Shown piece after piece: positions 2,173-49,946 of a DNA stretch of 64,000 bases. Source of the DNA: Proteocatella sp. (lineage in GTDB: Bacteria; Bacillota; Clostridia; Peptostreptococcales; Filifactoraceae); NCBI GenBank assembly GCA_051653405.1, contig JBOFWC010000062.1:1439-65438 (forward strand), read 5' to 3'. Position 1 is the stretch's first letter, and every line of letters begins with the position of its first letter. Below the pieces are notes generated by a model that did not search any database, was not told where the DNA came from, and saw nothing but the letters and a program-made list of their open reading frames with translations. Position numbers and translations under genes: made by a program.

Positions 2173-2382
2173 TTATTTTAAAATTATTCTGTATTTTAAA
2201 TCTTTAATCTCATTATCTTCTGGCGCTATACTCTGAAGCTGAAGTATAACTCTTAATGCTTCTTTTTCTTTATTTTCAAGTATAAGCTCATATATCCTGC
2301 GTTTTATTCCTCTTACTATATTTTCAAGTTCTTTTTTTCGCAGCATTTCTTTATTTATACTATCATTTCCCTCGTTTTTCAT
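2173..2382 (-). CDS. Small hypothetical protein (69 aa, charged, helical)
   Basis: ORF-track frame 2173-2394. The internal ATG at 2382 has TGGAGA 5 nt upstream, whereas the first ATG has no RBS. No family recognised. Confidence 0.4.
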   Translation of the reverse strand: MKNEGNDSINKEMLRKKELENIVRGIKRRIYELILENKEKEALRVILQLQSIAPEDNEIKDLKYRIILK

Positions 2383-2448
2383 TGGTATCTCCATTTTAAG
2401 GTTTTCTATATTATTATTATCGTCATAAATTTGATTTTAAATAATACA

Positions 2449-2475
2449 TTATTATTTACCTATTTTTGTCGATAT
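2449..2475 (+). promoter_or_regulatory. SigD-like promoter upstream of fliD
   Basis: TTAT-N16-TCGATAT on the plus strand, about 100 nt upstream of the fliD start. Confidence 0.4.
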
Positions 2476-2574
2476 TATTATATAAAATATTTTTTTATTT
2501 AAAACACTTTTATTTTAATGTTAATATATTTTCGCTAATTAAAATTTTTATATTATATGATGGGGAGTGAAACT

Positions 2575-4923
2575 ATGTACTCTATAAACACCTTAACAAA
2601 CAGTCAAGCGCCTTCTTCAAAAGCTATTGGCGGACTTGCTACAGGATTAAAGACTGATGAGATTATAAAAGGAATGACCAGTTCTACTAGACTGAAAATA
2701 GCACGTCAAAAACAAAACAGTCAGCTTCTTTCATGGCAAACGGATGCTTTTAGAGGTATCAGTGATAAACTTATAAATTTTTCCAAAAAATTCACTTCAT
2801 TTACTTCTGATACCAATCTTATAAGTTCAAGTTTTTATACAAAAACCGACATAAAAACCCTTGGAACAAATGCCTCTAAGGTAAGTGTTTCTGGTAGCTC
2901 TGAAATGGCTGAAAATATAAAAATCCTTTCGGCTTCTAAAGCTACTGATGGAACTATTCTTTCTTCTAACACCGCTTCTGACAAACTTCTAAGCGGCAAA
3001 GATGCAGTTAATTTTGATAATGTCAGTGTAAGCTCCGTAAATGGCCAAAAAATGGTTATTAAGTACAGCGGGGTTAGCTACACGCTTTCTTTTGATGATA
3101 AGAAATATACTGATGCTACTGATTTTGCAAATGCTCTCAACACAAAACTTTCTGAAGTATCTATTGACGGAAGCAGCGAAAAACTTTCTGATATAATGAA
3201 TGTCTCTGTAGCTGATGGAAAAATAAGTATCTCAGCTAAGCAATCTGGTAAAAATTTTGAGCTTACCGAGTTTTCAGATAATATGAAACCTGTGCTTGGT
3301 TTTGAAAAAACTCAATTTACAGATGGAAAAAAATCAGTTGTTTTTGGAACTGATTTTACTGGCACTCAAAATACTGGTAGTTTTACTAAGGCAAGCACAT
3401 TTTCAGATGCACTTGCAGATAAAGCTATTAGATTTTCACTAAATAATACTTCCAAAAATATATCTTTTACAAAAGCTGAGCTTGATGAAACTAAAACAGA
3501 TGGCGTATATGATAAAACTAAATTTGAAGCTCTATTCCAAAAGAAACTTGATACGGCATTTGGCAAAGATGCTATTAAGGTGGATTTTGATGCTGGCGGC
3601 AAGCTTAAATTTACAACTTCAAATTCAGGTTCAGTATTAAAGGTTCCTGATATTTCTCACACTGCTCAGGATTTGTTAAAACTTGAAATTGGTTCTTCAA
3701 ACAGACTTACTGATTCTACTAAACTTAGTGATATTGCTAGTTTAAGTGCTCCATTTGAATTAAACATAGACGGTACTGCGCATACCTTTGGTGCCGATGC
3801 TACTCTAAAAGATTTAAAGGATTATATAAATAATTCTGGAAAAAATATAACCGTAAATTATGTTGAAAGCTTAGACCGTTTTGAGTTTAAGTCCACAAAA
3901 AAGGATGGCACACCTATTGAACTTAGTGGAAATCTTTCAGAAAAATTATTTGGTACAAATTCCCCTGATAATAAATTTACAGTTCAATCATCATCTAGTG
4001 CTACGCTTAAAATTCAATACGGAGATGGTGCCGCAATAGAATTAACCAGTGATAATAACACGTTTAATGTAGATGACCTAACTATAAATATAAATGATAG
4101 TTTTTCATCACTTGATGATGGGGGAGCTATTACTGGTGACCCAATAAGACTTTCTGCAAAGACTGATACCTCTAAAATTTTTGATGCAGTTAAAGATATG
4201 GTTAAAGATTATAATGATATCGTTGATAATGTAAACAAAGCTTATAGCGAAAAGCCAAATCGTAAATTCCCTCCACTTACTGATGAACAACGAAAAGAAA
4301 TGTCTGAATCTGAAATTAAAGCTTGGGAGGAAAAGGCTAAAACGGGAATGCTATTTGGAAGCCGTGAAATGTCTTCGCTTAGTTTAGAACTTCGAAATGT
4401 TTTTTATTCTTCAAAAGAAGCTATGGAAAAACTAAATTCTGTAGGTATCTCAACTTCTACAAATTGGAAAGATCATGGAAAAATAATTATTGATGAAACT
4501 AAGCTTAAGGCTGCCATAGATTCTGATCCCGAAAATATAAAGAACTTATTTTCAGCCCCTCTTTCTAATAAAAAAGATGCAAATGGCGATGATCTCCTAG
4601 TTAATGGTAAGACTGTTGTAGATACTACTTCAGGTGGAGTAATGGCTAGACTTCAATATTTAACAGATAAATATGCTAAAACAGAGGGCTCTAATAAAGG
4701 TATCCTCATCGAAAAAGCTGGTAGTACCTCATCTCCGCTTTCGCTTACTAAAAATGATTTATTTGATAAAATGAGTAGCATTGATAAAATAATAAAAGAC
4801 CTTAACAGCACGCTAAATAGAGAAACTCTTCGTTATCAAAAACAATTTGCCAACCTAGAAACTGCTTACTCTAAGTTAACTGCCCAAAGTGGATGGCTTA
4901 TGCAGCAATTTGGAGGTCAATAA
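2575..4923 (+). CDS. fliD: Flagellar filament cap protein FliD (large, about 782 aa)
   Basis: The C-terminal region (DYNDIVDNVNKAY...LTDEQRKEMSESEIKAWEEKAKTGMLFGSREM...LRYQKQFANLETAYSKL) is typical of FliD. The ATG at 2575 has GGGGAG 7 nt upstream. The middle carries several flagellin-IN-like modules. Confidence 0.9.
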   Translation: MYSINTLTNSQAPSSKAIGGLATGLKTDEIIKGMTSSTRLKIARQKQNSQLLSWQTDAFRGISDKLINFSKKFTSFTSDTNLISSSFYTKTDIKTLGTNASKVSVSGSSEMAENIKILSASKATDGTILSSNTASDKLLSGKDAVNFDNVSVSSVNGQKMVIKYSGVSYTLSFDDKKYTDATDFANALNTKLSEVSIDGSSEKLSDIMNVSVADGKISISAKQSGKNFELTEFSDNMKPVLGFEKTQFTDGKKSVVFGTDFTGTQNTGSFTKASTFSDALADKAIRFSLNNTSKNISFTKAELDETKTDGVYDKTKFEALFQKKLDTAFGKDAIKVDFDAGGKLKFTTSNSGSVLKVPDISHTAQDLLKLEIGSSNRLTDSTKLSDIASLSAPFELNIDGTAHTFGADATLKDLKDYINNSGKNITVNYVESLDRFEFKSTKKDGTPIELSGNLSEKLFGTNSPDNKFTVQSSSSATLKIQYGDGAAIELTSDNNTFNVDDLTININDSFSSLDDGGAITGDPIRLSAKTDTSKIFDAVKDMVKDYNDIVDNVNKAYSEKPNRKFPPLTDEQRKEMSESEIKAWEEKAKTGMLFGSREMSSLSLELRNVFYSSKEAMEKLNSVGISTSTNWKDHGKIIIDETKLKAAIDSDPENIKNLFSAPLSNKKDANGDDLLVNGKTVVDTTSGGVMARLQYLTDKYAKTEGSNKGILIEKAGSTSSPLSLTKNDLFDKMSSIDKIIKDLNSTLNRETLRYQKQFANLETAYSKLTAQSGWLMQQFGGQ

Positions 4924-7074: not shown

Positions 7075-7521
7075 CTAAATCCCCTCATTTTTAAACTGCT
7101 TAAATTGGTGTCTTACGGCATATTCATTGTTTTCTAAAACGATCTGTTTTGCCTTCATGTTTTCTGGATTTACTATGATTGGGCTTTTTAGATTAACTGT
7201 ATTCTCGGTTATATTATCTTTTACAGTACATATCGCATAACAAAAAACCCCTTCTGTAGAATCACTTATTCCAAGTTCTTCTACATCTTCTTCTGTTAGC
7301 GATGGTGAGTAATCTGGTTTTAAATTAAAAGGGTTCACAAGCACAAATGCTAATTCTTTTTCATCTAAACTTTGGAGACACATCAAATCGTCACTTCCTA
7401 ATTCAAAATTTATCATTACATAATCTTTGAATTTTTCAAAACCTAAAATTCCGTTTTCAAACTTTAGAATTGAATCTTTTGAAATTGCAACTTCGTTGAA
7501 ATACTTTGTAGATATTTCCAT
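7075..7521 (-). CDS. fliW: Flagellar assembly factor FliW (copy 1)
   Basis: 148 aa with MEISTKYFNEV...FENGILGFE...LAFVLVNPF...TVNLKSPIIVN, the FliW pattern. It sits next to csrA. Confidence 0.9.
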   Translation of the reverse strand: MEISTKYFNEVAISKDSILKFENGILGFEKFKDYVMINFELGSDDLMCLQSLDEKELAFVLVNPFNLKPDYSPSLTEEDVEELGISDSTEGVFCYAICTVKDNITENTVNLKSPIIVNPENMKAKQIVLENNEYAVRHQFKQFKNEGI

Positions 7522-7572
7522 TTTTAAATCTCCTTTCTAACACATCCCTAATTTAAACCTTGTAAATTTTAA

Positions 7573-7815
7573 TTAAACCTTTTTATTTTTAGAATTTCCA
7601 AACACGTTCTTTATGTCATTTAATGATAATGTATTTGATTTTACTGCCTCTTTGTTTACTTCAGCGGCTGCTACAAGTTCTGTCCTCAGTATTGGTATTT
7701 CCTTTGGAGCTTCTATAGCTATTTTTACTTTTTCCCCAGTTATATCAACTATAGTAATCTTTATATTCTCATTTATCAGTAGTGATTCGCCTTTTTTTCT
7801 GTGAAGTATAAGCAT
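7573..7815 (-). CDS. csrA: Carbon storage / translational regulator CsrA
   Basis: MLILHRKKGESLLINENIKITIVDITGEKVKIAIEAPKEIPILRTEL is the canonical CsrA fold sequence, with a C-terminal extension as in the flagellar CsrA of Firmicutes. Confidence 0.95.
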   Translation of the reverse strand: MLILHRKKGESLLINENIKITIVDITGEKVKIAIEAPKEIPILRTELVAAAEVNKEAVKSNTLSLNDIKNVFGNSKNKKV

Positions 7816-7817
7816 AT

Positions 7818-8264
7818 TTACGACTCTCCTTCCGTAAACTGCCTTAATTCATGCCTAAACGTGTAATTTGAATTATCTAATATAATTTGTTTTGCCATCT
7901 TGTTTTGAGGATTAATAACGATTGGGCATTTTAGATTTACAGTACTTTCTGCTATAGTATCCTTTACAACACAGATTACATAATAAAGCACTCCTGTATT
8001 GTCACTTTCTATTTTTAGCGCCTTTATATCTTCTTCTGAAAGCTTTGGTTCATAGTCTGATTTTAAATCAAAGGGATTCATTAAAACAAATGCAAGTTCA
8101 CTATCTTCTATGTTTTGAAGACAGAGTATATTGTCGCTTCCTTTTTCAAATTCCATTATTACATATTTATGAACATATTCAAATCCAAATATTCCATCTT
8201 CAAAGTATATAATATCTGATTCTAAAACCTCGACATCATCAAAATATTTTGTAGATATCCTCAT
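7818..8264 (-). CDS. fliW: Flagellar assembly factor FliW (copy 2)
   Basis: MRISTKYFDDVEV...FEDGIFGFE...LAFVLMNPF...TVNLKCPIVINP. The ATG at 8264 has AAAGGAGAA upstream. The longer track ORF would overlap the upstream gene. Confidence 0.9.
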   Translation of the reverse strand: MRISTKYFDDVEVLESDIIYFEDGIFGFEYVHKYVIMEFEKGSDNILCLQNIEDSELAFVLMNPFDLKSDYEPKLSEEDIKALKIESDNTGVLYYVICVVKDTIAESTVNLKCPIVINPQNKMAKQIILDNSNYTFRHELRQFTEGES

Positions 8265-8274
8265 AGTTTCTCCT

Positions 8275-8895
8275 TTATGCTTTTGCAGAAAATTCTTTAT
8301 GTTCAGCATCTGGATCTGAACTTGGTGGTACATATATAGGTTTTCCAATATACTCTATTATTACATCAGGATATTGAGTTATGGTTATTTCTATATTCCC
8401 TGGGATAAATTCAAAATCTCCATTTTGAAGCTTGAATTCAAAATTTAATTTGTCCATCTCATATTGTATTGATATATTTGGCTCCGACCATGTTATTTCA
8501 GGTCTTTCTGATGGCAAAAATGTAAGTTCAAATTCTCCTGTTGGAAGTTCATTTCTATCCTTAAATATCTGGTTTAGTGCTTCTCCATCTAGTTTTGCAT
8601 CCATAAGAAGTGTTCCCTCCTGTGTAAACCTAGCCGTGGCCTCATAAGCTGATTTCTTACCTTTTTCTGCTGCTTGGTCTATGCTTCTTATAGCAGTCGG
8701 GGTAACTGAATTCCTAGCTTCAAAGGTGTCAATATTTACTTTTATATTCTGACTTTGGATTTTTAATCCTCCATCAGTTCTTGTAACATCAAGCTCTGCA
8801 GTTCCCGATTTCCTCTCAAATTTTGCATTATTTATTTTTAGTTCATATGCTATAGGTACATTTTTTATTTTTATAAGTTGCTCCAAAACAAGCAC
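8275..8895 (-). CDS. YviE-like protein (DUF6470-type) between flgL and fliW
   Basis: Same position as B. subtilis yviE (flgK-flgL-yviE-fliW-csrA). The start is GTG at 8895 or TTG at 8886, after a G-rich RBS. Family assignment rests on synteny and memory of the sequence. Confidence 0.6.
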   Translation of the reverse strand: MLVLEQLIKIKNVPIAYELKINNAKFERKSGTAELDVTRTDGGLKIQSQNIKVNIDTFEARNSVTPTAIRSIDQAAEKGKKSAYEATARFTQEGTLLMDAKLDGEALNQIFKDRNELPTGEFELTFLPSERPEITWSEPNISIQYEMDKLNFEFKLQNGDFEFIPGNIEITITQYPDVIIEYIGKPIYVPPSSDPDAEHKEFSAKA

Positions 8896-15083: not shown

Positions 15084-17168
15084 TTAGTCATAATGTGCTA
15101 ATGTGTAAACATTCAGGATGTCCAGAATTATACTTATATTTCCGTCACCTAGTATTGTGCATCCAGCTATTCCAGAGTTCTTTATATTGTAATTATTCAA
15201 GAATGTTGGCAGCGGTTTTACTACGACCTGCTGTTCTCCTATAAGCTCATCTACAAATAGGCAGTATGATCTGTCTCCTGATTCAACCCATATAAGAATA
15301 CCATCTTCTATGCTTGTCACCTCTGTATCGATGCTATATAGATCATGAATTCTAATTATTGGATAAAATTCTTCCATTCGTTTTACAATTTCTCTTCCGC
15401 TTACATCATGAATTATTTCATCATTTGATACTCTGAAGCACTGTCTTATATTGTTTATAGGAATTGTGAATATTGATTTCCCTACAGCGGTTTCCATTCC
15501 CTCTACAATTGCAAGAGTCAGTGGTATCTTTAAGGTTGTGCAGCTTCCTTCTCCCCATTCACTGGTTATAGTTATAGTTCCTCCAAGAGCTTCTATACTC
15601 TTTTTAACTACATCCATTCCAACGCCTCTACCCGAATATTCTGTAACTGCTTCATTAGTAGAGAAACCTGGCATCATTAGAAGCTGAATGATTTCTTTTT
15701 GAGAATATTCACTCTCAGACTTAACAAGAAGTCCATTGTCCCTTGCTTTTGCAAGCACCCTATCTGTGTCTATTCCCTGTCCGTCATCACTTATTGTTAT
15801 TATTACTTCACTTCCTGTATGACTTGCAGAAAGTATAATTTCCCCTTTAGCTTTTTTGCCTCTAGCTAATCTTTCTTCTTTTGTTTTTTCTATACCGTGA
15901 TCCATAGAGTTTCTTACGATATGCATTATCGGATCCCCTATGCTATCGACGATAGATTTATCTACCTCTGTATCTTCTCCTATTATTACAAGGTCTACTT
16001 CTTTTTCAAGTTTCTTTGTCATATCCCTTACAATACGATTCATTTTTTGGAATACGCCAGATATAGGAACCATTCTAAGTGACATTGTTATATCTTGAAG
16101 CTCGTCAGTAAGCTTTCTAAGCTGTCTTGTTGATTTAAGGAAATTGTCAAGCTTTAGTCCTTGAATATCTGGAGATGAGGTAACCATAGATTCTGTGATT
16201 ACTATTTCTCCAACTAGTGCCATTAGCTTGTCTAACTTAGAAAGATTTACACTTATTAAACTTTGTTTGTTAGGTGCTTGAGTTGCAGCTACTTGTTTTG
16301 AAGCTACTGGATCTGCTTCACTTTTAGCTCCAAATAAGTTAGCGCCTAAATCTTGTGTTATTTTTTCTACCTTAGCTCCAACTTTTGAGTCTATTTTTTC
16401 TGGAGCTTCATTATCTTGTTTTTCTTTTTCCATAAGCTCATATGAACGTATGCCATTTGTGTGTTTTATTATAGATATAGCTTTTTCAGCAAGGTCTTTA
16501 GTTTCAAAATTCATGCAGAACCCTTTATCCAATATATAAGTCGCTGAGTCCATGTTTGTATCTATATCATCAGGATAATATGTGAATTCCATCTCTGACT
16601 CTTTAAGCGCTGTCACTAACATGAATGCTCTTATGTTTGCCATACCAGTTTCTTCATCAAAAAATACACATACCATATGATCCCCTTGATTTACAGGTTC
16701 TTCACTTATTGAAGCTTCTACAGATTCCTTTGAATCAGTAGATACCTTGTCCCCATTTTTAATTTTCTCAAGGAACATATTAATGTTTGCCGCAAAACTG
16801 TCGATATTCTCTGAGAGAGGTTCCCCTTTTTGGAGTTTGTCTACCTCAGACTTAAAATAATCCATTGACTGGAATACTATATCAAATAACTCTGAAATTA
16901 ATTTTTCATTCAGAGTCTCCATCCCGTTCTCACGAATAAAGAAGAATAAATCTTCTATTCTGTGAGCAATCTCCATAAGGGATACGAACTCCATCATTGC
17001 TGAAGAGCCTTTTATGGTATGCATTATACGGAATATTTCATCAATGTTGTTGCTAGATAAGGTTTTTTCCATCTCGGCACCAATAAATAACTCTTCTAAT
17101 TGTTCCAAAAGAGTGTTGGTTTCAAAAAGGTACATATCAAGCATAGTAGAATCAATGCTATTGTTCAT
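15084..17168 (-). CDS. cheA: Chemotaxis histidine kinase CheA
   Basis: Hpt motif MHTIKGSS, HATPase region (DDGQGID, GRGVGMDVV) and a C-terminal CheW-like domain. The ATG at 17168 has AAGAGGTGG upstream. Confidence 0.95.
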   Translation of the reverse strand: MNNSIDSTMLDMYLFETNTLLEQLEELFIGAEMEKTLSSNNIDEIFRIMHTIKGSSAMMEFVSLMEIAHRIEDLFFFIRENGMETLNEKLISELFDIVFQSMDYFKSEVDKLQKGEPLSENIDSFAANINMFLEKIKNGDKVSTDSKESVEASISEEPVNQGDHMVCVFFDEETGMANIRAFMLVTALKESEMEFTYYPDDIDTNMDSATYILDKGFCMNFETKDLAEKAISIIKHTNGIRSYELMEKEKQDNEAPEKIDSKVGAKVEKITQDLGANLFGAKSEADPVASKQVAATQAPNKQSLISVNLSKLDKLMALVGEIVITESMVTSSPDIQGLKLDNFLKSTRQLRKLTDELQDITMSLRMVPISGVFQKMNRIVRDMTKKLEKEVDLVIIGEDTEVDKSIVDSIGDPIMHIVRNSMDHGIEKTKEERLARGKKAKGEIILSASHTGSEVIITISDDGQGIDTDRVLAKARDNGLLVKSESEYSQKEIIQLLMMPGFSTNEAVTEYSGRGVGMDVVKKSIEALGGTITITSEWGEGSCTTLKIPLTLAIVEGMETAVGKSIFTIPINNIRQCFRVSNDEIIHDVSGREIVKRMEEFYPIIRIHDLYSIDTEVTSIEDGILIWVESGDRSYCLFVDELIGEQQVVVKPLPTFLNNYNIKNSGIAGCTILGDGNISIILDILNVYTLAHYD

Positions 17169-17219
17169 GGAAATTAACACCACCTCTTAATTTATGATTT
17201 TTAAATACGCTATACTAAT

Positions 17220-17246
17220 ATATCGGAAAATATTCGAATTTATTAA
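17220..17246 (-). promoter_or_regulatory. SigD-like promoter of the cheA...mcp operon
   Basis: The minus strand reads TTAA-N16-CCGATAT, the best -10 match to GCCGATAT in the window, about 50 nt upstream of cheA. Confidence 0.55.
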
Positions 17247-17272
17247 TAGTTTTTAATGGTAAAGGTGAAAAA

Positions 17273-18694
17273 ATGGCTAATATTTTAAAAGTAACAACCC
17301 CCCCTTCTCAATCTTACGAAAACTCCCCTAAGGGAAACCCTACTCAAATAAATAATACCAACGTAAAAAACATAATAGATCCTTCAAAAATAACTCGAAG
17401 TGACTTTAAAAATGACTTTGAAGATTCTACAAGTAATTTAGCGCCCCATTATGAATCTAATTTTGGGAAATTCCTTCAACTTGTAAAAAACTCTCCTGGT
17501 CTAATTGATATACTTCCACAGATGTTTTTCGGCCGCATGGAAATGCTTGTGTCTTCAGGAATAGATCAAGGGTTTGCTTCTGAAATTGCAAATTATATGG
17601 AAATGCTTAAAATGAGTCCTGAAGAATTCGCAACTTTTTTAAAGTCTCAATTTGAAAACTCAGTTGACTTTAAGGGAATATTTTTTGCTGAGCTTAGAAA
17701 TGCTTTAGATTCAAATATTTCTGCTGAATTCAAAAATAGTATCCTTGCTTTTTTAAAAAAATACAATGACATGAGTGCAAATGATAGAATTTTAAATTCT
17801 ATTTCTCAAAATATAAAAAACATTATAGCAAACATGCCTAAAAGTGAAGCTCGTGAAGTTGAAGCACTTTTTAAGTCTTTGAATCTTAATTCTAGTCCTG
17901 GCGATGTAGCTCAAAACCTAGCTCTTCTTAAGGGAGAACTTATTCCTAAAATAGCAAATTATATATCTAGAAATCATGACTTTGGTCCCGTAAGAAACTT
18001 TGTTACATTATTGACTTTAGATGTGTCTAGGTATGAAAATAGCTCTCGAAATGACGTTTTAAATTCTTTAAGAAACCTTAGCTCGTTCGGAGGATTCCGC
18101 GACCGATTTGGAAACCTTGACGAAAATGTTTTAAATTCTCTTTTGGATAAACTTTTATCTGAAAAACAATCAAATGAAAATCCGTCTATGGATAGACTCA
18201 TATCGATTATCCAAAAAGGGTTTGAAGGTCAAGCTGGTTATGAAAACAAACTTGTCTTTCAAAATGTAATGCAGTCAATCCTTATAAATTCAAGCGTTTA
18301 TATGCCGCTTCTTCATGTGCTTATACCAGTTGAAATGTTTGGCAAATTCATGTTTTCAGAAATATGGGTAGACCCAAACGAAAAAGGAAATCAAAGTTCT
18401 GATTCTGATTCTGATCGTTCAATCAAACTTCTATTAAAATTTGATATTGAAAATATAGGTTTTTTTGATATGATAGTTTATATGAACGGAAAAGAAGTTA
18501 GTATACAACTATATTACCCAGAAAAGCTAGACAAGTCACAAAAAGTTATTCAAAAAAACATTTCTGACATAGTTGAAAAGAATGGACTTAAATTTAATTC
18601 AATCCAACTTTCAAAATCTTCTAGAAGATTAACTATAAGCGAGGTATTTCCTCAAATACTAGAAAGGAGAAATAATATAAATGTCACTATATAA
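17273..18694 (+). CDS. YlqG-like protein with a FliK-C (Flg_hook)-like C-terminal region
   Basis: 473 aa. The C-terminal segment IKLLLKFDIENIGFFDMIVYMNGKEVSIQLYYPEKL...IVEKNGLKFNSIQLS parallels the window's own FliK segment YELQLDPENLGKIKVKLLFEDGKLTVSM...LGQAIQQN. It overlaps the next gene by 14 nt. Confidence 0.55.
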   Translation: MANILKVTTPPSQSYENSPKGNPTQINNTNVKNIIDPSKITRSDFKNDFEDSTSNLAPHYESNFGKFLQLVKNSPGLIDILPQMFFGRMEMLVSSGIDQGFASEIANYMEMLKMSPEEFATFLKSQFENSVDFKGIFFAELRNALDSNISAEFKNSILAFLKKYNDMSANDRILNSISQNIKNIIANMPKSEAREVEALFKSLNLNSSPGDVAQNLALLKGELIPKIANYISRNHDFGPVRNFVTLLTLDVSRYENSSRNDVLNSLRNLSSFGGFRDRFGNLDENVLNSLLDKLLSEKQSNENPSMDRLISIIQKGFEGQAGYENKLVFQNVMQSILINSSVYMPLLHVLIPVEMFGKFMFSEIWVDPNEKGNQSSDSDSDRSIKLLLKFDIENIGFFDMIVYMNGKEVSIQLYYPEKLDKSQKVIQKNISDIVEKNGLKFNSIQLSKSSRRLTISEVFPQILERRNNINVTI

Positions 18695-18953
18695 TAATGG
18701 TTCAAAAAAAGCTGTAGCGCTTACTTACGATGACAATAAAAATTTCGCACCTGTCATTGTAGCCTCTGGAATGGGTTATATCGCTGAAAAAATAGTAGAT
18801 GTAGCCTGCCAAAATAATGTTCCAGTTTACGAAGATACCTCCCTTGCTACACTTCTTACTCAATTGGAGCTAGGTCAGGAAATTCCAGAAGAACTCTACA
18901 AAACCATTGTAGACATATATGTATATTTTCTAAATTATTCTGTTGATAAATAA
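18681..18953 (+). CDS. Free-standing FlhB C-terminal (FlhB-CC / YlqH-like) domain protein
   Basis: KAVALTYDDNKNFAPVIVASGMGYIAEKIVDVACQNNVPVYEDTSLATLL...IPEELYKTIVDIYVYF aligns with FlhB in this window just after its NPTH site (YAVALRYDIEKDEAPILVAKGQDELALRIIKTAEENNVSVIENKPLARSLY...IPAEFYGEIAEILVYIY). Confidence 0.85.
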   Translation: MSLYNNGSKKAVALTYDDNKNFAPVIVASGMGYIAEKIVDVACQNNVPVYEDTSLATLLTQLELGQEIPEELYKTIVDIYVYFLNYSVDK

Positions 18954-31852: not shown

Positions 31853-32920
31853 CTAAAATTTAAATTCCTTATTGTTTAATTTGTAAATATATACTAAAAT
31901 TTCTGCTATTTCTCCGTAAAATTCTGCCGGTATTGCCCTATCCAACTCTGTAGTTGAATATAGACTTCTCGCTAAAGGCTTATTTTCGATTACAGAAACA
32001 TTGTTTTCTTCAGCTGTTTTTATTATTCTAAGCGCAAGTTCATCTTGACCCTTAGCTACTAATATAGGCGCCTCATCTTTTTCTATATCATAACGCAAAG
32101 CAACTGCATAATGCGTAGGGTTTTTTATTACTACATCCGCACTTGGAACTGCTTGCATCATTCTAGACATAGCTCTCTGCCTTTGAATCTCTTTTATCTT
32201 TCCTTTTATTTGAGGATTTCCCTCCATTTGTTTGTATTCTTCTTTAACATCATGCTTTGACATTTTTATTTGACGTTCATAATCCCACCACTGATAAAAA
32301 TAGTCTATTGCTGCAATTGCTGCAAATGCTATACTTACATTAAAAACCATATCTATTACAGATTCTAACATAAATTTACTTGAATACATTATTCCCATAT
32401 CTAAAGTTCTACTAAATAATACAAATCTTTTTTGTATAAATTTATATAAAACTATTAACAGTATGGTTATTTTTATAATTCCTTTTAAAACTTCAACAAT
32501 ACTTTTTAAAGAAAATAATTTTTTTATTCCTTCCAAAGGATTTAATCTGCTGAATTTAGGTCTTAAGCTTTCTGTAGAAAATAATAATCTAGTTTGAGCT
32601 AATGTAACGATTACTCCTATTAACATTGCTATAACAATTATCGGAATAGCTGCTCTTATAAAAGCATCTAAGGAAGTAACTGCAATTTCTTTAACAAAGC
32701 TATCCGTTATTTCAGTTCTATTTGAGGCATATCCCATGTATGTTAACATAAAGGCTTTTACCGTTTTATAAATCCCTGGGAAAAGCAGTTTAAGTGAATA
32801 AAAAATTCCTAATATGGATACAAGCGAGGTCACATCTTTACTTGTAAAAATATTCCCTTTCTTCCGCTCGTCTTTTCGTTTCTTGGGGGTGGCTTTTTCC
32901 GTCTTAGAATCCCCTGCCAA
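31853..32920 (-). CDS. flhB: Flagellar export protein FlhB
   Basis: GDSKTEKATPKKRKDERKKGN at the N-terminus and the NPTHYAVAL autocleavage site. Confidence 0.95.
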   Translation of the reverse strand: MAGDSKTEKATPKKRKDERKKGNIFTSKDVTSLVSILGIFYSLKLLFPGIYKTVKAFMLTYMGYASNRTEITDSFVKEIAVTSLDAFIRAAIPIIVIAMLIGVIVTLAQTRLLFSTESLRPKFSRLNPLEGIKKLFSLKSIVEVLKGIIKITILLIVLYKFIQKRFVLFSRTLDMGIMYSSKFMLESVIDMVFNVSIAFAAIAAIDYFYQWWDYERQIKMSKHDVKEEYKQMEGNPQIKGKIKEIQRQRAMSRMMQAVPSADVVIKNPTHYAVALRYDIEKDEAPILVAKGQDELALRIIKTAEENNVSVIENKPLARSLYSTTELDRAIPAEFYGEIAEILVYIYKLNNKEFKF

Positions 32921-41888: not shown

Positions 41889-43124
41889 TTACATAAATTT
41901 AAATTCTGAAGAAAATTGTCTTTTCAAATTTTCAATCTCCCAAAGTCCTAGTTTTACTTGATCTGCAAATTCAGCATCTTCTCTGTGATTCTGTTGATTT
42001 TGATTTTGCTGATTTGAACCATTTTGTCCTTTTTGTTGGTTTTGATTGTTATTAAGATAGTTTTCTTCTCTTACATTAACGGTTACTTCTGATTTAGTGT
42101 TTTGCTGTATTGCTTGGCCTAGACTTGAAATTCCTTCTGACAACAAATTAGCTGTCTTGCTATTGCTACAAAGCATTGAAACGGTAAGCTTTCCATCTTC
42201 AAAAAGAAGTTTTACTTTTATTTTACCTAAGTTCTCAGGGTCAAGCTGTAACTCATATTCATTAGATTTTTCGGCTTTTATTACTACATTTTTAGAAATT
42301 TCTTTTATAAGGTTTTCTGAAGAAACCTCTTGAGCATCTCCAACTTTTATCTTTATAGTTTCCACTGGCTCTGTCTTTTCTGATTTTGCAGAATTAAGCA
42401 TTTCTATTGAAATGTCATCTCCTGATTCGTCATTTTTCTCAAAACCAAACTGATCAGACTTATCATTTTTTTCAATATTTTTTATGCCTTTGTCTTCATT
42501 CTCTCCTAAAGCTTTGACTTTATCTGACGCATCTTCTGTTTTTGTTTTGCCAAAATCTTTATTTTGAACATCTTTAGATGAGACAACATTTGCCATATCC
42601 AGCTCGGAATCAGATTTTAAAGCCTTAGATTCATTTACATTTTGAGTTGTGTTTTCTGCATTAAGTGAAGCTGTTTTAGAAGTATCTACATTTATTATCT
42701 CTTGCTTTGTAGCCTCTTGGTTTAAACCTTGAATAGTCGATATGCTCGATATAGGTTCTGAACCCTTTTCTAATTGGACATTTCTTACCTTAGATCTTAA
42801 CTCAAGGTCAAGTGCATTTGCTGAAAAAACTGCTTGATTTAATATACTCTCAGGTTTGACTTCCTCTTTAGCTTCGGTTTCTACACTATTTAGATTTTCA
42901 TCCTCAGGTTTTTTTGATACATTCTCATCTGTTGTTTGAGTGTTATCTTTCGATTGGATGTCTTTCTTTGAGTTATTTTGATTTCCATAATCTTGTTCTT
43001 TAACCTTACTGTCTAGTGCATTTTTAAAATCAAAATTGTCATCACTTGAACGTTTCCTACTACTTTTGTTTGTAGCTTTTGGGGCATTACTCTGAAGTAT
43101 TTGTAGCGTTTCGATCTTCTTCAC
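41889..43124 (-). CDS. fliK: Flagellar hook-length control protein FliK
   Basis: Low-complexity N-terminal and central region, then a C-terminal Flg_hook-type segment LQLDPENLGKIKVKLLFEDGKLTVSM. Located between fliJ and flgD. Confidence 0.8.
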   Translation of the reverse strand: MKKIETLQILQSNAPKATNKSSRKRSSDDNFDFKNALDSKVKEQDYGNQNNSKKDIQSKDNTQTTDENVSKKPEDENLNSVETEAKEEVKPESILNQAVFSANALDLELRSKVRNVQLEKGSEPISSISTIQGLNQEATKQEIINVDTSKTASLNAENTTQNVNESKALKSDSELDMANVVSSKDVQNKDFGKTKTEDASDKVKALGENEDKGIKNIEKNDKSDQFGFEKNDESGDDISIEMLNSAKSEKTEPVETIKIKVGDAQEVSSENLIKEISKNVVIKAEKSNEYELQLDPENLGKIKVKLLFEDGKLTVSMLCSNSKTANLLSEGISSLGQAIQQNTKSEVTVNVREENYLNNNQNQQKGQNGSNQQNQNQQNHREDAEFADQVKLGLWEIENLKRQFSSEFKFM

Positions 43125-49244: not shown

Positions 49245-49946
49245 TTAAATAATATCATTATCTTCCTCAAACTTTGACTTTCCTCTTTTATTCTCAATAT
49301 CTATTCTAAATATAGCTTGTTTAAGCATGCTTTCTTCTACAAGATTTAGTGATATTATCTTGCACCCATAGTAATAATGCGGATCCTTAGGATATCTTTC
49401 TCTCCTTATTACTTCTAATTTTACCGGAAGGGGTTCTTTTGTAAATTCAAATAACATATCTACAACCTGCCCAACTTTTAGAGATTCCGATGTAAAAAAG
49501 CATACGCCTCCTCCACTTACATCCTTCATTACCACAGGTATTGCAACCTCTTCATCAGTTTCTTCATCTTCAAAAGTAACCTTAGTCTTATAAATATAGT
49601 CTACTTTAAGATCATTTTTTAGTTCATTGCTTATATTCTCAAAATCCTTAAAGAATACAGCATTGCCATCTATATACTCAATTTCACCTCTATATATTTG
49701 ATCATATTTTTCAAGCGATTTAAAATAGAGTGTCCCTTTATCTTTGATCAATTTTACATCCCAAATAGAAAGAAGTTGGATAACCGCTATCTTAGATCCT
49801 ACATAATCTAAATAAGCTCCTATAAGCTCATTACCTTTTTCATCTGAAATTATTACATTTTTATAAGGCTCAATATTTCGCTTGTCTGTAAAAGTATCGC
49901 TAGCTTTAGTCTCCAAATTATTGTCTTTAAGTGATTCTTTTGACAT
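49245..49946 (-). CDS. PilZ-domain protein (YcgR/MotI-like) as first gene of the fla operon
   Basis: DVSGGGVCF matches the D/NxSxxG half of the PilZ motif, but no RxxxR lies 20-30 aa upstream (KNDLKVD instead). About 120 aa of N-terminal beta-rich domain. Confidence 0.7.
   Translation of the reverse strand: MSKESLKDNNLETKASDTFTDKRNIEPYKNVIISDEKGNELIGAYLDYVGSKIAVIQLLSIWDVKLIKDKGTLYFKSLEKYDQIYRGEIEYIDGNAVFFKDFENISNELKNDLKVDYIYKTKVTFEDEETDEEVAIPVVMKDVSGGGVCFFTSESLKVGQVVDMLFEFTKEPLPVKLEVIRRERYPKDPHYYYGCKIISLNLVEESMLKQAIFRIDIENKRGKSKFEEDNDII

Follow-up and report, generated by a model that had tools for sequence, protein, structure and literature searches.

An overlapping gene pair in Clostridial motility loci encodes a soluble FlhB-CC paralog, FlhX, and a large partner with a probable FliK-C-like domain

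We analyzed a 64,000-nucleotide (nt) stretch of DNA from Proteocatella sp. (positions 1,439 to 65,438 of contig JBOFWC010000062.1, assembly GCA_051653405.1; hereafter the window, numbered from its first base), in which a gene for a 473-amino-acid (aa) protein overlaps a downstream gene for a 90-aa protein inside a motility locus. On profile and alignment evidence, the 90-aa protein is a free-standing paralog of FlhB-CC of the FlhX or TIGR00789 type, and its 473-aa partner probably joins a disordered N-terminus and a folded helical middle to a strongly diverged FliK-C/T3S4-like C-terminus. In the canonical flagellar system, FlhB-C autocleaves at an NPTH motif, FlhB-CC remains bound to FlhB-CN after cleavage, and contact of FliK-C with FlhB-C switches export from hook-type to filament-type substrates. 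On balance, we favor the reading that the pair is a Clostridial operon of the fliK2-flhX type, a second and soluble copy of both switch partners that would act on the switch of the export gate.

The 90-aa protein matched only the last 76 positions of PF01312 (259–334 of 335; E 8e-20) and, in a pairwise alignment, residues 266–349 of the FlhB encoded in the window (43% identity, E 4e-16). It has no membrane domain, and these matches bear out the preliminary description of this DNA, which had called the product a soluble FlhB-CC paralog lacking a cleavage motif. That description also had the protein starting just after the NPTH site; the alignment with FlhB stands, but the placement of the start does not. 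FlhB K266-N-P-T-H-Y-A-V-A-L lies opposite N5-N-G-S-K-K-A-V-A-L of the 90-aa protein, with N6-G7-S8-K9 facing N267-P268-T269-H270, and because the open reading frame (ORF) begins five residues before the NPTH-equivalent position, the motif has been replaced by NGSK rather than skipped. The 90-aa protein also lacks any equivalent of the strand found just before NPTH in FlhB. NPTH was present in none of the aligned FlhX proteins, all of which kept the A/V-P dipeptide and the hydrophobic positions of the last helix. In Salmonella FlhB, these positions reportedly make up the substrate-docking patch A286/P287/A341/L344 (Evans and colleagues, 2013).

The best NCBIfam model for the 90-aa protein was TIGR00789 (flhB_rel, 'FlhB-like flagellar biosynthesis protein'), at 90.8 bits compared to 70.1 bits for TIGR00328 (FlhB), and TIGR00789 likewise beat the full-length FlhB models for every stand-alone homolog scored, from Bacillus, P. 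aeruginosa, Acetoanaerobium and Lacrimispora. Among these, only Bacillus YlqH cleared the curated cut-off of 117.35 bits (B. velezensis YlqH 123 bits, Acetoanaerobium 96.1, Lacrimispora 92.8, P. aeruginosa FlhX 72.7). Because its score also falls under this cut-off, the window FlhX belongs to a sister subgroup within the TIGR00789 type. NCBI names the FlhX proteins considered here 'EscU/YscU/HrcU family ... switch protein'. By these comparisons, FlhX and the FlhB-CC fragment are ancient paralogs.

Conservation of the pair was followed in 80 related genome loci that we fetched (L001–L080). In all 80, flhX lies directly after the gene for the ~470-aa protein, and the two genes overlap by exactly 14 nt each time, with the consensus AATGTCAnnnnTnTrA. 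The flhX ribosome-binding site in the window, AAAGGAGA, ends 10 nt upstream of the flhX ATG, and a purine run of the GAAAGGA/GAAGGA type is kept at this position in the junction sequences of other loci; the last codons of the upstream gene double as the ribosome-binding site and start codon of flhX. Since 80 of 80 loci show the same pair and the same 14-nt overlap, the arrangement is far beyond chance. The invariant overlap indicates that flhX is translationally coupled to the upstream gene. The coordinates of both ORFs, the overlap, the ribosome-binding site and the divergent cheA gene were all as the preliminary description had given them when compared with the ORF list and the sequence, and its view of the pair as translationally coupled within a motility locus held across the 80 loci.

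FlhX was better conserved than its partner in this sample (60–87% versus 38–78% identity). Two other origins of flhX were considered and rejected: a recent duplication of the resident flhB, because the protein is 60–87% identical to Clostridial FlhX proteins versus 43% to its own FlhB, and a pseudogene remnant, because the reading frame is undamaged and its conservation extends to 80 of 80 loci. FlhX length ranged from 90 to 138 aa, the 90 aa of the window protein being the shortest, and the extra length is a variable, mostly acidic C-terminal extension found in Lachnospiraceae-type genomes.

A divergent cheA gene precedes the pair in 76 of the 80 loci. In two Anaerovorax loci (L025 and L080), the ~470-aa gene and flhX stand immediately downstream of full-length flhB on the same strand, with no opposite cheA; in another two (L031 and L052), the available sequence begins 26–67 bases upstream of the gene, leaving the upstream neighbor out of view. 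Wherever the upstream flank is available in this sample, the ~470-aa family adjoins motility genes. In at least 33 of the 80 loci, the next gene after flhX, on the same strand, encodes a PilZ-domain protein, and Lacrimispora has the order flgK-flgN-flgM-cheB-cheR-cheW-cheA, then, divergently, the pair and PilZ. The Lacrimispora PilZ gene (9353–9979 of L084) encodes 208 aa, a YcgR/MotI-like size. In the window, a PilZ homolog lies at ~49245–49946 on the minus strand, where the flagellar operon region begins, and not beside flhX.

Searches of a protein collection returned 369 homologs of the 473-aa protein at E≤1e-3, none with a precomputed Pfam domain and most annotated 'hypothetical protein'. 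A profile search of a representative library returned 650 representatives of the ~470-aa family at 50% identity, and the best 150 matches listed were all clear members. Relatives of the gene occur in at least 557 Clostridial species genomes, including Peptostreptococcales, Lachnospiraceae, Anaerotignum, Anaerovorax, Butyricicoccus and others; the closest are metagenome-assembled genomes of Proteocatella (78% identity). A tblastn search of PLSDB records with the 473-aa protein gave no match and hence no annotated relative. Several PLSDB records that match FlhX (NZ_CP154629.1, NZ_CP083716.1, NZ_CP133752.1 and NZ_OL790696.1) are plainly chromosomes or pieces of chromosomes, and their plasmid labels are untrustworthy, as illustrated by mislabeled records of 2.6 Mb from Acetoanaerobium and 4.8 Mb from E. 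coli.

By sequence searches, the 473-aa protein had no Pfam match at E≤1, no NCBIfam match and nothing significant against the window FliK by BLASTP, and a PDB sequence search with the family profile returned only noise (Rpo4 and Stu2 at E 0.02–0.14). Its layout was taken from an AlphaFold2 model built with a 64-sequence alignment (mean predicted local distance difference test score, pLDDT, 72). Conserved residues, in short motifs within the predicted disordered N-terminus, include M1, K6, V7, T9, P10, N33 and D44, followed by invariant S62, N63 and F67 (alignment A1). At the border between the disordered segment and the first helix, the invariant residues form part of a motif, S62-N63-F..F67-x-Q-x-L (SNFxxFxQxL, residues 62–71; 17456–17485), which fits the loose FxxxPhi gate-recognition pattern of early export substrates, a pattern of low information that may be matched here by chance. 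In the middle domain, block-mean pLDDT was mostly 72–92 from residue ~101 onward and 52–64 over residues 61–100, and neither Foldseek nor PDB sequence searches gave a meaningful match. Classical FliK has an extended ruler region where this protein has a domain predicted with confidence to be folded, and the model therefore argues against the partner acting as a secreted ruler; the conserved disordered N-terminus would allow export of the protein as a possibility.

The assignment of the C-terminal domain draws on structural, Pfam and profile comparisons. With the whole model as query against the PDB, Foldseek matched 5cuk, the PscP switch/T3S4 domain, at prob 0.99 (target-normalized template-modeling score, TM, 0.54; root-mean-square deviation 2.6 over 67 columns). 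For a separate model of residues 340–473 (pLDDT 80), 5cuk ranked first of the 350,542 chains searched, with prob 0.97, TM 0.49 and E 0.1, and Salmonella FliK-C (2rrl) stood at rank 24 (prob 0.80). E-values for the 5cuk match spanned 0.1–0.4. PF02120 drew matches from more sequences of the full-length alignment than any other Pfam family (7 of 64, below threshold, best E 0.02), and in the C-domain alignment no other family was matched more than once (PF02120 in 3 of 23, below threshold, best E 0.006). By hhalign, the C-domain profile aligned with the profile of the window FliK C-terminus at E 0.032, in a register that sets LKFDIENIGFF... opposite LQLDPENLGKIK... and LKFDIENIGFFDMIVYMNGKEVSIQL... 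opposite LQLDPENLGKIKVKLLFEDGKLTVSM..., and with the C-terminus of P. aeruginosa FliK2, a proven PF02120 domain, at E 0.038 over 100 columns. The positive control, the window FliK-C profile against P. aeruginosa FliK2-C, reached only E 0.018; FliK-C domains appear simply to be very divergent among themselves. Column-shuffled profiles attained the observed hhalign scores in 3 of 150 cases for the window FliK and 1 of 150 for P. aeruginosa FliK2 (p ~0.01–0.02).

These tests agree with one another and with a precedent of synteny in Pseudomonas. In P. aeruginosa (L082, a record labeled as a plasmid), a gene annotated 'flagellar hook-length control protein FliK', whose 492-aa product has PF02120 at residues 398–478 (E 1e-18), overlaps the gene for a 111-aa FlhX by 4 nt; in P. 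putida, this operon has been described as fliK2-flhX. In the window pair, too, the upstream gene overlaps flhX, and the FliK-C identity of the predicted partner domain is probable. We consider it likely that residues ~383–448 are a genuine, diverged T3S4 domain.

Several results weigh against this assignment, or against the wider reading of the pair as a fliK2-flhX-type operon. None of the single tests of the T3S4 assignment is significant alone. PF02120 was absent at E≤1 from the Pfam search of the 473-aa protein, so that the gathering threshold was not reached, and it was absent from the Pfam searches of ten divergent family members. Foldseek E-values were 0.1–0.6, and because archaeal S-adenosylmethionine synthetase subdomains, which share a small beta-alpha-beta fold, score about as well, the fold alone is no proof. 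In HMMER searches of ~5,400 decoy ORFs with a FliK-C profile, several members of the ~470-aa family were among the top non-significant matches, none at E <1; in the reverse search, FliK ranked eighth among the window ORFs at E 1.4, not above noise, and profile-to-sequence searches did not recover YlqG or P. aeruginosa FliK2 at all. The confidently folded helical middle domain of the predicted partner is unlike the ruler region of classical FliK, and a scan of the window found no sigma-28 site of the TAAA-N15-CCGATA type on the plus strand upstream of the pair. The preliminary description had likened the C-terminus of the 473-aa protein to that of FliK: the parallel shows in hhalign, in exactly the proposed register, but not in the Pfam search for PF02120 or in BLASTP.

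Some of these negative results would suit an alternative in which the 473-aa protein is a lineage-specific chaperone, stabilizer or adaptor of FlhX, whose C-domain is no homolog of FliK-C and resembles T3S4 just in having a small alpha/beta fold of a generic kind. Such a protein would be expected to lack significant PF02120, NCBIfam and PDB sequence matches, to score like unrelated proteins in Foldseek (E 0.1) and to leave FliK-type proteins in the noise of HMMER profile searches, all of which was observed; Bacillus YlqG is likewise without PF02120. We nevertheless regard this alternative as unlikely, given that four independent weak signals converge on one family and one register, that the same test scores two genuine FliK-C domains no better against one another, and that the flhX partners of Pseudomonas and Acetoanaerobium carry PF02120 at their extreme C-terminus, adjoining flhX.

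If the pair is a fliK2-flhX-type operon, its two products would be synthesized at a constant ratio and would assemble in the cytoplasm into a complex whose T3S4-like domain holds FlhX as FliK-C contacts FlhB-C. Because FlhX mimics the cleaved CC fragment without the CN strand, it could dock, like an already 'cleaved' FlhB-CC, on the export gate (FlhB-CN), replacing the resident FlhB-CC or standing beside it. The pair could thereby modulate, back up or lock the switch from rod/hook-type to filament-type export; by analogy, H. pylori FlhX shows what may be a 'spare part' version of such behavior. The preliminary description had suggested that the pair could be a decoy, timer or regulator of the switch. 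A bolder form of this mechanism, which we offer as a long shot, would make the pair a pre-assembled 'switched-state' cartridge, with the T3S4-like domain keeping FlhX in the late-substrate conformation and bringing it to the export gate. FlhX would then swap with cleaved FlhB-CC on FlhB-CN, and switching, locking or resetting at filament regrowth would occur by subunit exchange and not only by conformational change in FlhB. The SNFxxFxQxL segment could serve in this scheme as a docking motif of the gate-recognition type.

The free-standing FlhB-CC protein is not new in kind. The preprint bioRxiv 10.1101/2021.08.29.457346 credits the name FlhX to Pallen 2005 and cites work on H. pylori in which the FlhX HP1575 partly replaces FlhB-CC (Wand 2006; Smith 2009) and is a 'spare part' allowing export when FlhB-CC is deleted. 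This last result would favor pure redundancy, with FlhX a spare FlhB-CC for cases of loss or damage, a partner that only keeps FlhX soluble, and no regulatory role. We find this quite improbable for the Clostridial pair: the invariant overlap, the 60–87% identity among FlhX proteins and the retention of a ~470-aa partner in at least 557 species are not expected of a backup, and the P. putida pair, fliK2-flhX (PP_4328-PP_4329), which encodes a FliK-C protein and FlhX, is transcribed as a late, FliA-dependent operon (bioRxiv 10.1101/2021.08.29.457346), which suggests a scheduled role. It is highly improbable that chemotaxis or motor control, rather than export switching, is the main target of the pair, with the two proteins serving, for example, the CheA array or a PilZ brake and FlhX co-opted for protein binding: the divergent cheA in 76 of 80 loci, the PilZ-domain gene downstream in at least 33 and the gene for a methyl-accepting chemotaxis protein (MCP) downstream in the window would fit it, but FlhX retains high similarity to FlhB-CC (43% identity), the Anaerovorax pair follows flhB and not cheA, the Pseudomonas and Bacillus pairs are unlinked to che genes, and the sole experimental FlhX data reported in bioRxiv 10.1101/2021.08.29.457346 concern export.

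Coordinates of the pair, of its predicted domains and of the related genes in the window are collected in the table. The element TATATCGG in the divergent intergenic region, at 17221–17228, reads CCGATATA on the cheA strand, a CCGATAT box resembling the -10 element of sigma-28/SigD promoters that faces cheA, not the pair, and is the only CCGATA box in the spacer; the spacing from TAAA to the CCGATA box is below consensus in the window. An exact CCGATA occurs at the equivalent spot in 40 of the 76 loci with divergent cheA, and other loci have TCGATA variants. When the surroundings of the pair were scanned for promoters and terminators, the counts were not above those in shuffled sequences. To the left of cheA, the window carries cheW, cheR, cheB, flgN, flgK, flgL, a DUF6470 gene, fliW, csrA, a second fliW and an MCP gene, and the main flagellar operon, further right, holds both the canonical flhB and the canonical fliK. 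The two fliW paralogs (148 and 176 aa) flank the 80-aa csrA (7573–7815) on the minus strand at 7075–8348, and the DUF6470 gene (8275–8895) lies between flgL and the first fliW.

Table. Positions in the window of the gene pair, its predicted domains and related features.
Feature	Position	Strand	Basis or remark
473-aa FlhX partner gene (FliK2-like; annotated 'hypothetical protein', without Pfam family)	17273..18694	+	ORF list, ATG start
Residues 1–63, predicted disordered N-terminus	17273..17461	+	AlphaFold2 pLDDT 28–34
Residues 64–341, predicted all-helical middle domain, 16 helices	17462..18295	+	AlphaFold2 model
Residues 347–448, predicted C-terminal beta-rich domain	18311..18616	+	AlphaFold2 models
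Residues 383–448, predicted beta-beta-beta-alpha-beta core, candidate divergent T3S4/FliK-C	18419–18616	+	after beta-hairpin 347–367
Residues 449–473, conserved tail ISEVFPxIxERxNxINVxI	18617..18691	+	alignments A1/A2; junctions of 80 loci
flhX ribosome-binding site AAAGGAGA, within the upstream gene	18663..18670	+	sequence; purine run kept elsewhere
14-nt overlap ATGTCACTATATAA of the 473-aa gene and flhX	18681..18694	+	same overlap in 80/80 related loci
flhX, free-standing 90-aa FlhB-CC domain paralog without NPTH	18681..18953	+	ORF list, ATG; PF01312; TIGR00789; FlhB alignment
cheA (Hpt, P2, H-kinase_dim, HATPase_c, CheW domains), divergent from the pair	15084..17183	-	Pfam domains
Divergent intergenic region common to cheA and the pair, 89 nt	17184..17272	.	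contains TATATCGG
MCP gene after flhX	start 19013		Pfam
Canonical flhB of the locus, NPTH at residues 267–270	31853..32920	-	PF01312 full length, E 2e-121
Canonical fliK of the locus	41889..43124	-	PF02120 E 2.6e-12, residues 283–355

Debate continues over the way in which the flagellar export gate passes from one substrate class to the next and over the reversibility of that step, and FlhX, though a widespread paralog of FlhB-CC, has received little study. The preliminary description implied that the pair was novel, which does not hold for its kind: FlhX had already been named, the fliK2-flhX operon had already been described in P. putida (bioRxiv 10.1101/2021.08.29.457346), ylqG-ylqH is likewise known, and an 'flhX-fliK' is mentioned for Nitratiruptor. 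What is new is the recognition of an unannotated ~470-aa Clostridial family as the partner of FlhX, the invariance of the 14-nt overlap and the linking of three pair types, together with the diverged FliK-C domain that the family probably carries. In the Clostridial loci examined, the FlhX gene is always paired with this conserved 'hypothetical' gene (80 of 80), and a new Pfam or NCBIfam model for the ~470-aa family would be justified. Three differently annotated pairs, Pseudomonas fliK2-flhX, Bacillus ylqG-ylqH and the Clostridial pair, can be viewed as one recurring module of T3S4 and soluble FlhB-CC, which yields testable hypotheses: that the partners form a complex, that FlhX exchanges with FlhB-CC, and that the pair affects hook length and the secretion of late substrates.

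Comparison with Bacillus-type pairs separates architecture from homology. In B. velezensis (L081), the gene for a 567-aa YlqG ortholog overlaps that for the 93-aa YlqH by 4 nt within the order ylqF-rnhB-ylqG-ylqH-sucC. This ortholog (2280–3983) is annotated 'glycosyl transferase', and Pfam gives it only a sub-threshold Tex55 match and no PF02120 match. Comparison by hhalign of the 473-aa family with B. velezensis YlqG, at full length and at the C-terminus, was not significant (E 0.25–0.64). The preliminary description had noted a resemblance to ylqG-ylqH; this stands for the architecture and fails for YlqG itself, to which the 473-aa family has no homology detectable by these alignments beyond the general layout. 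The Bacillus-type order ylqF-rnhB-ylqG-ylqH also occurs in a Clostridial genome, that of Acetoanaerobium noterae (L083, 3498–5279), in a region without annotation. There, a 499-aa ORF with PF02120 (29.4 bits, E 7e-7; cut-off 29.8) and DUF6240 stops four bases short of the start codon of a 92-aa FlhX-like ORF; hhalign of the ~470-aa family against the C-terminus of this YlqG-like protein gave only a spurious 10-column stretch, and tblastn found no member of the ~470-aa family in the 2.6-Mb record. Because the Bacillus-type pair with its ylqF-rnhB context is thus present in a Clostridial genome as well, the Bacillus-type and che-linked Clostridial pairs are distinct lineages. The coupling of a large protein that ends in a T3S4-type domain to a soluble FlhB-CC thus recurs as a module, for which there are at least three families of partner; the window carries the che-linked Clostridial one.

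Compared to these known systems, the window pair shares its layout with Pseudomonas fliK2-flhX, which has a ~480-aa protein with a FliK-C-type domain at its extreme C-terminus, an overlapping downstream flhX and a place in the flagellar gene set; the two differ in PF02120, which matches the partner clearly in Pseudomonas (E 1e-18) but not in the Clostridial pair, in the overlap (4 versus 14 nt), and in that FliK2 and the 473-aa protein share no significant similarity outside the C-domain. Bacillus ylqG-ylqH likewise joins a large uncharacterized protein to an overlapping FlhB-CC paralog of ~93 aa, but lies in a housekeeping context rather than in a motility locus with cheA and MCP genes. H. 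pylori HP1575 and the TIGR00789 proteins resemble the window FlhX in being small, soluble, homologous to FlhB-CC only and without NPTH; the window FlhX differs in scoring under the TIGR00789 cut-off. The canonical FliK–FlhB switch and the YscP/PscP–YscU/PscU switch use the same domain types, T3S4, which is only probable in the 473-aa protein, and FlhB-C. Canonical FlhB, however, is membrane-anchored and autocleaving, whereas FlhX is neither, and in place of the extended ruler region of canonical FliK the 473-aa partner is predicted to have a folded helical domain.

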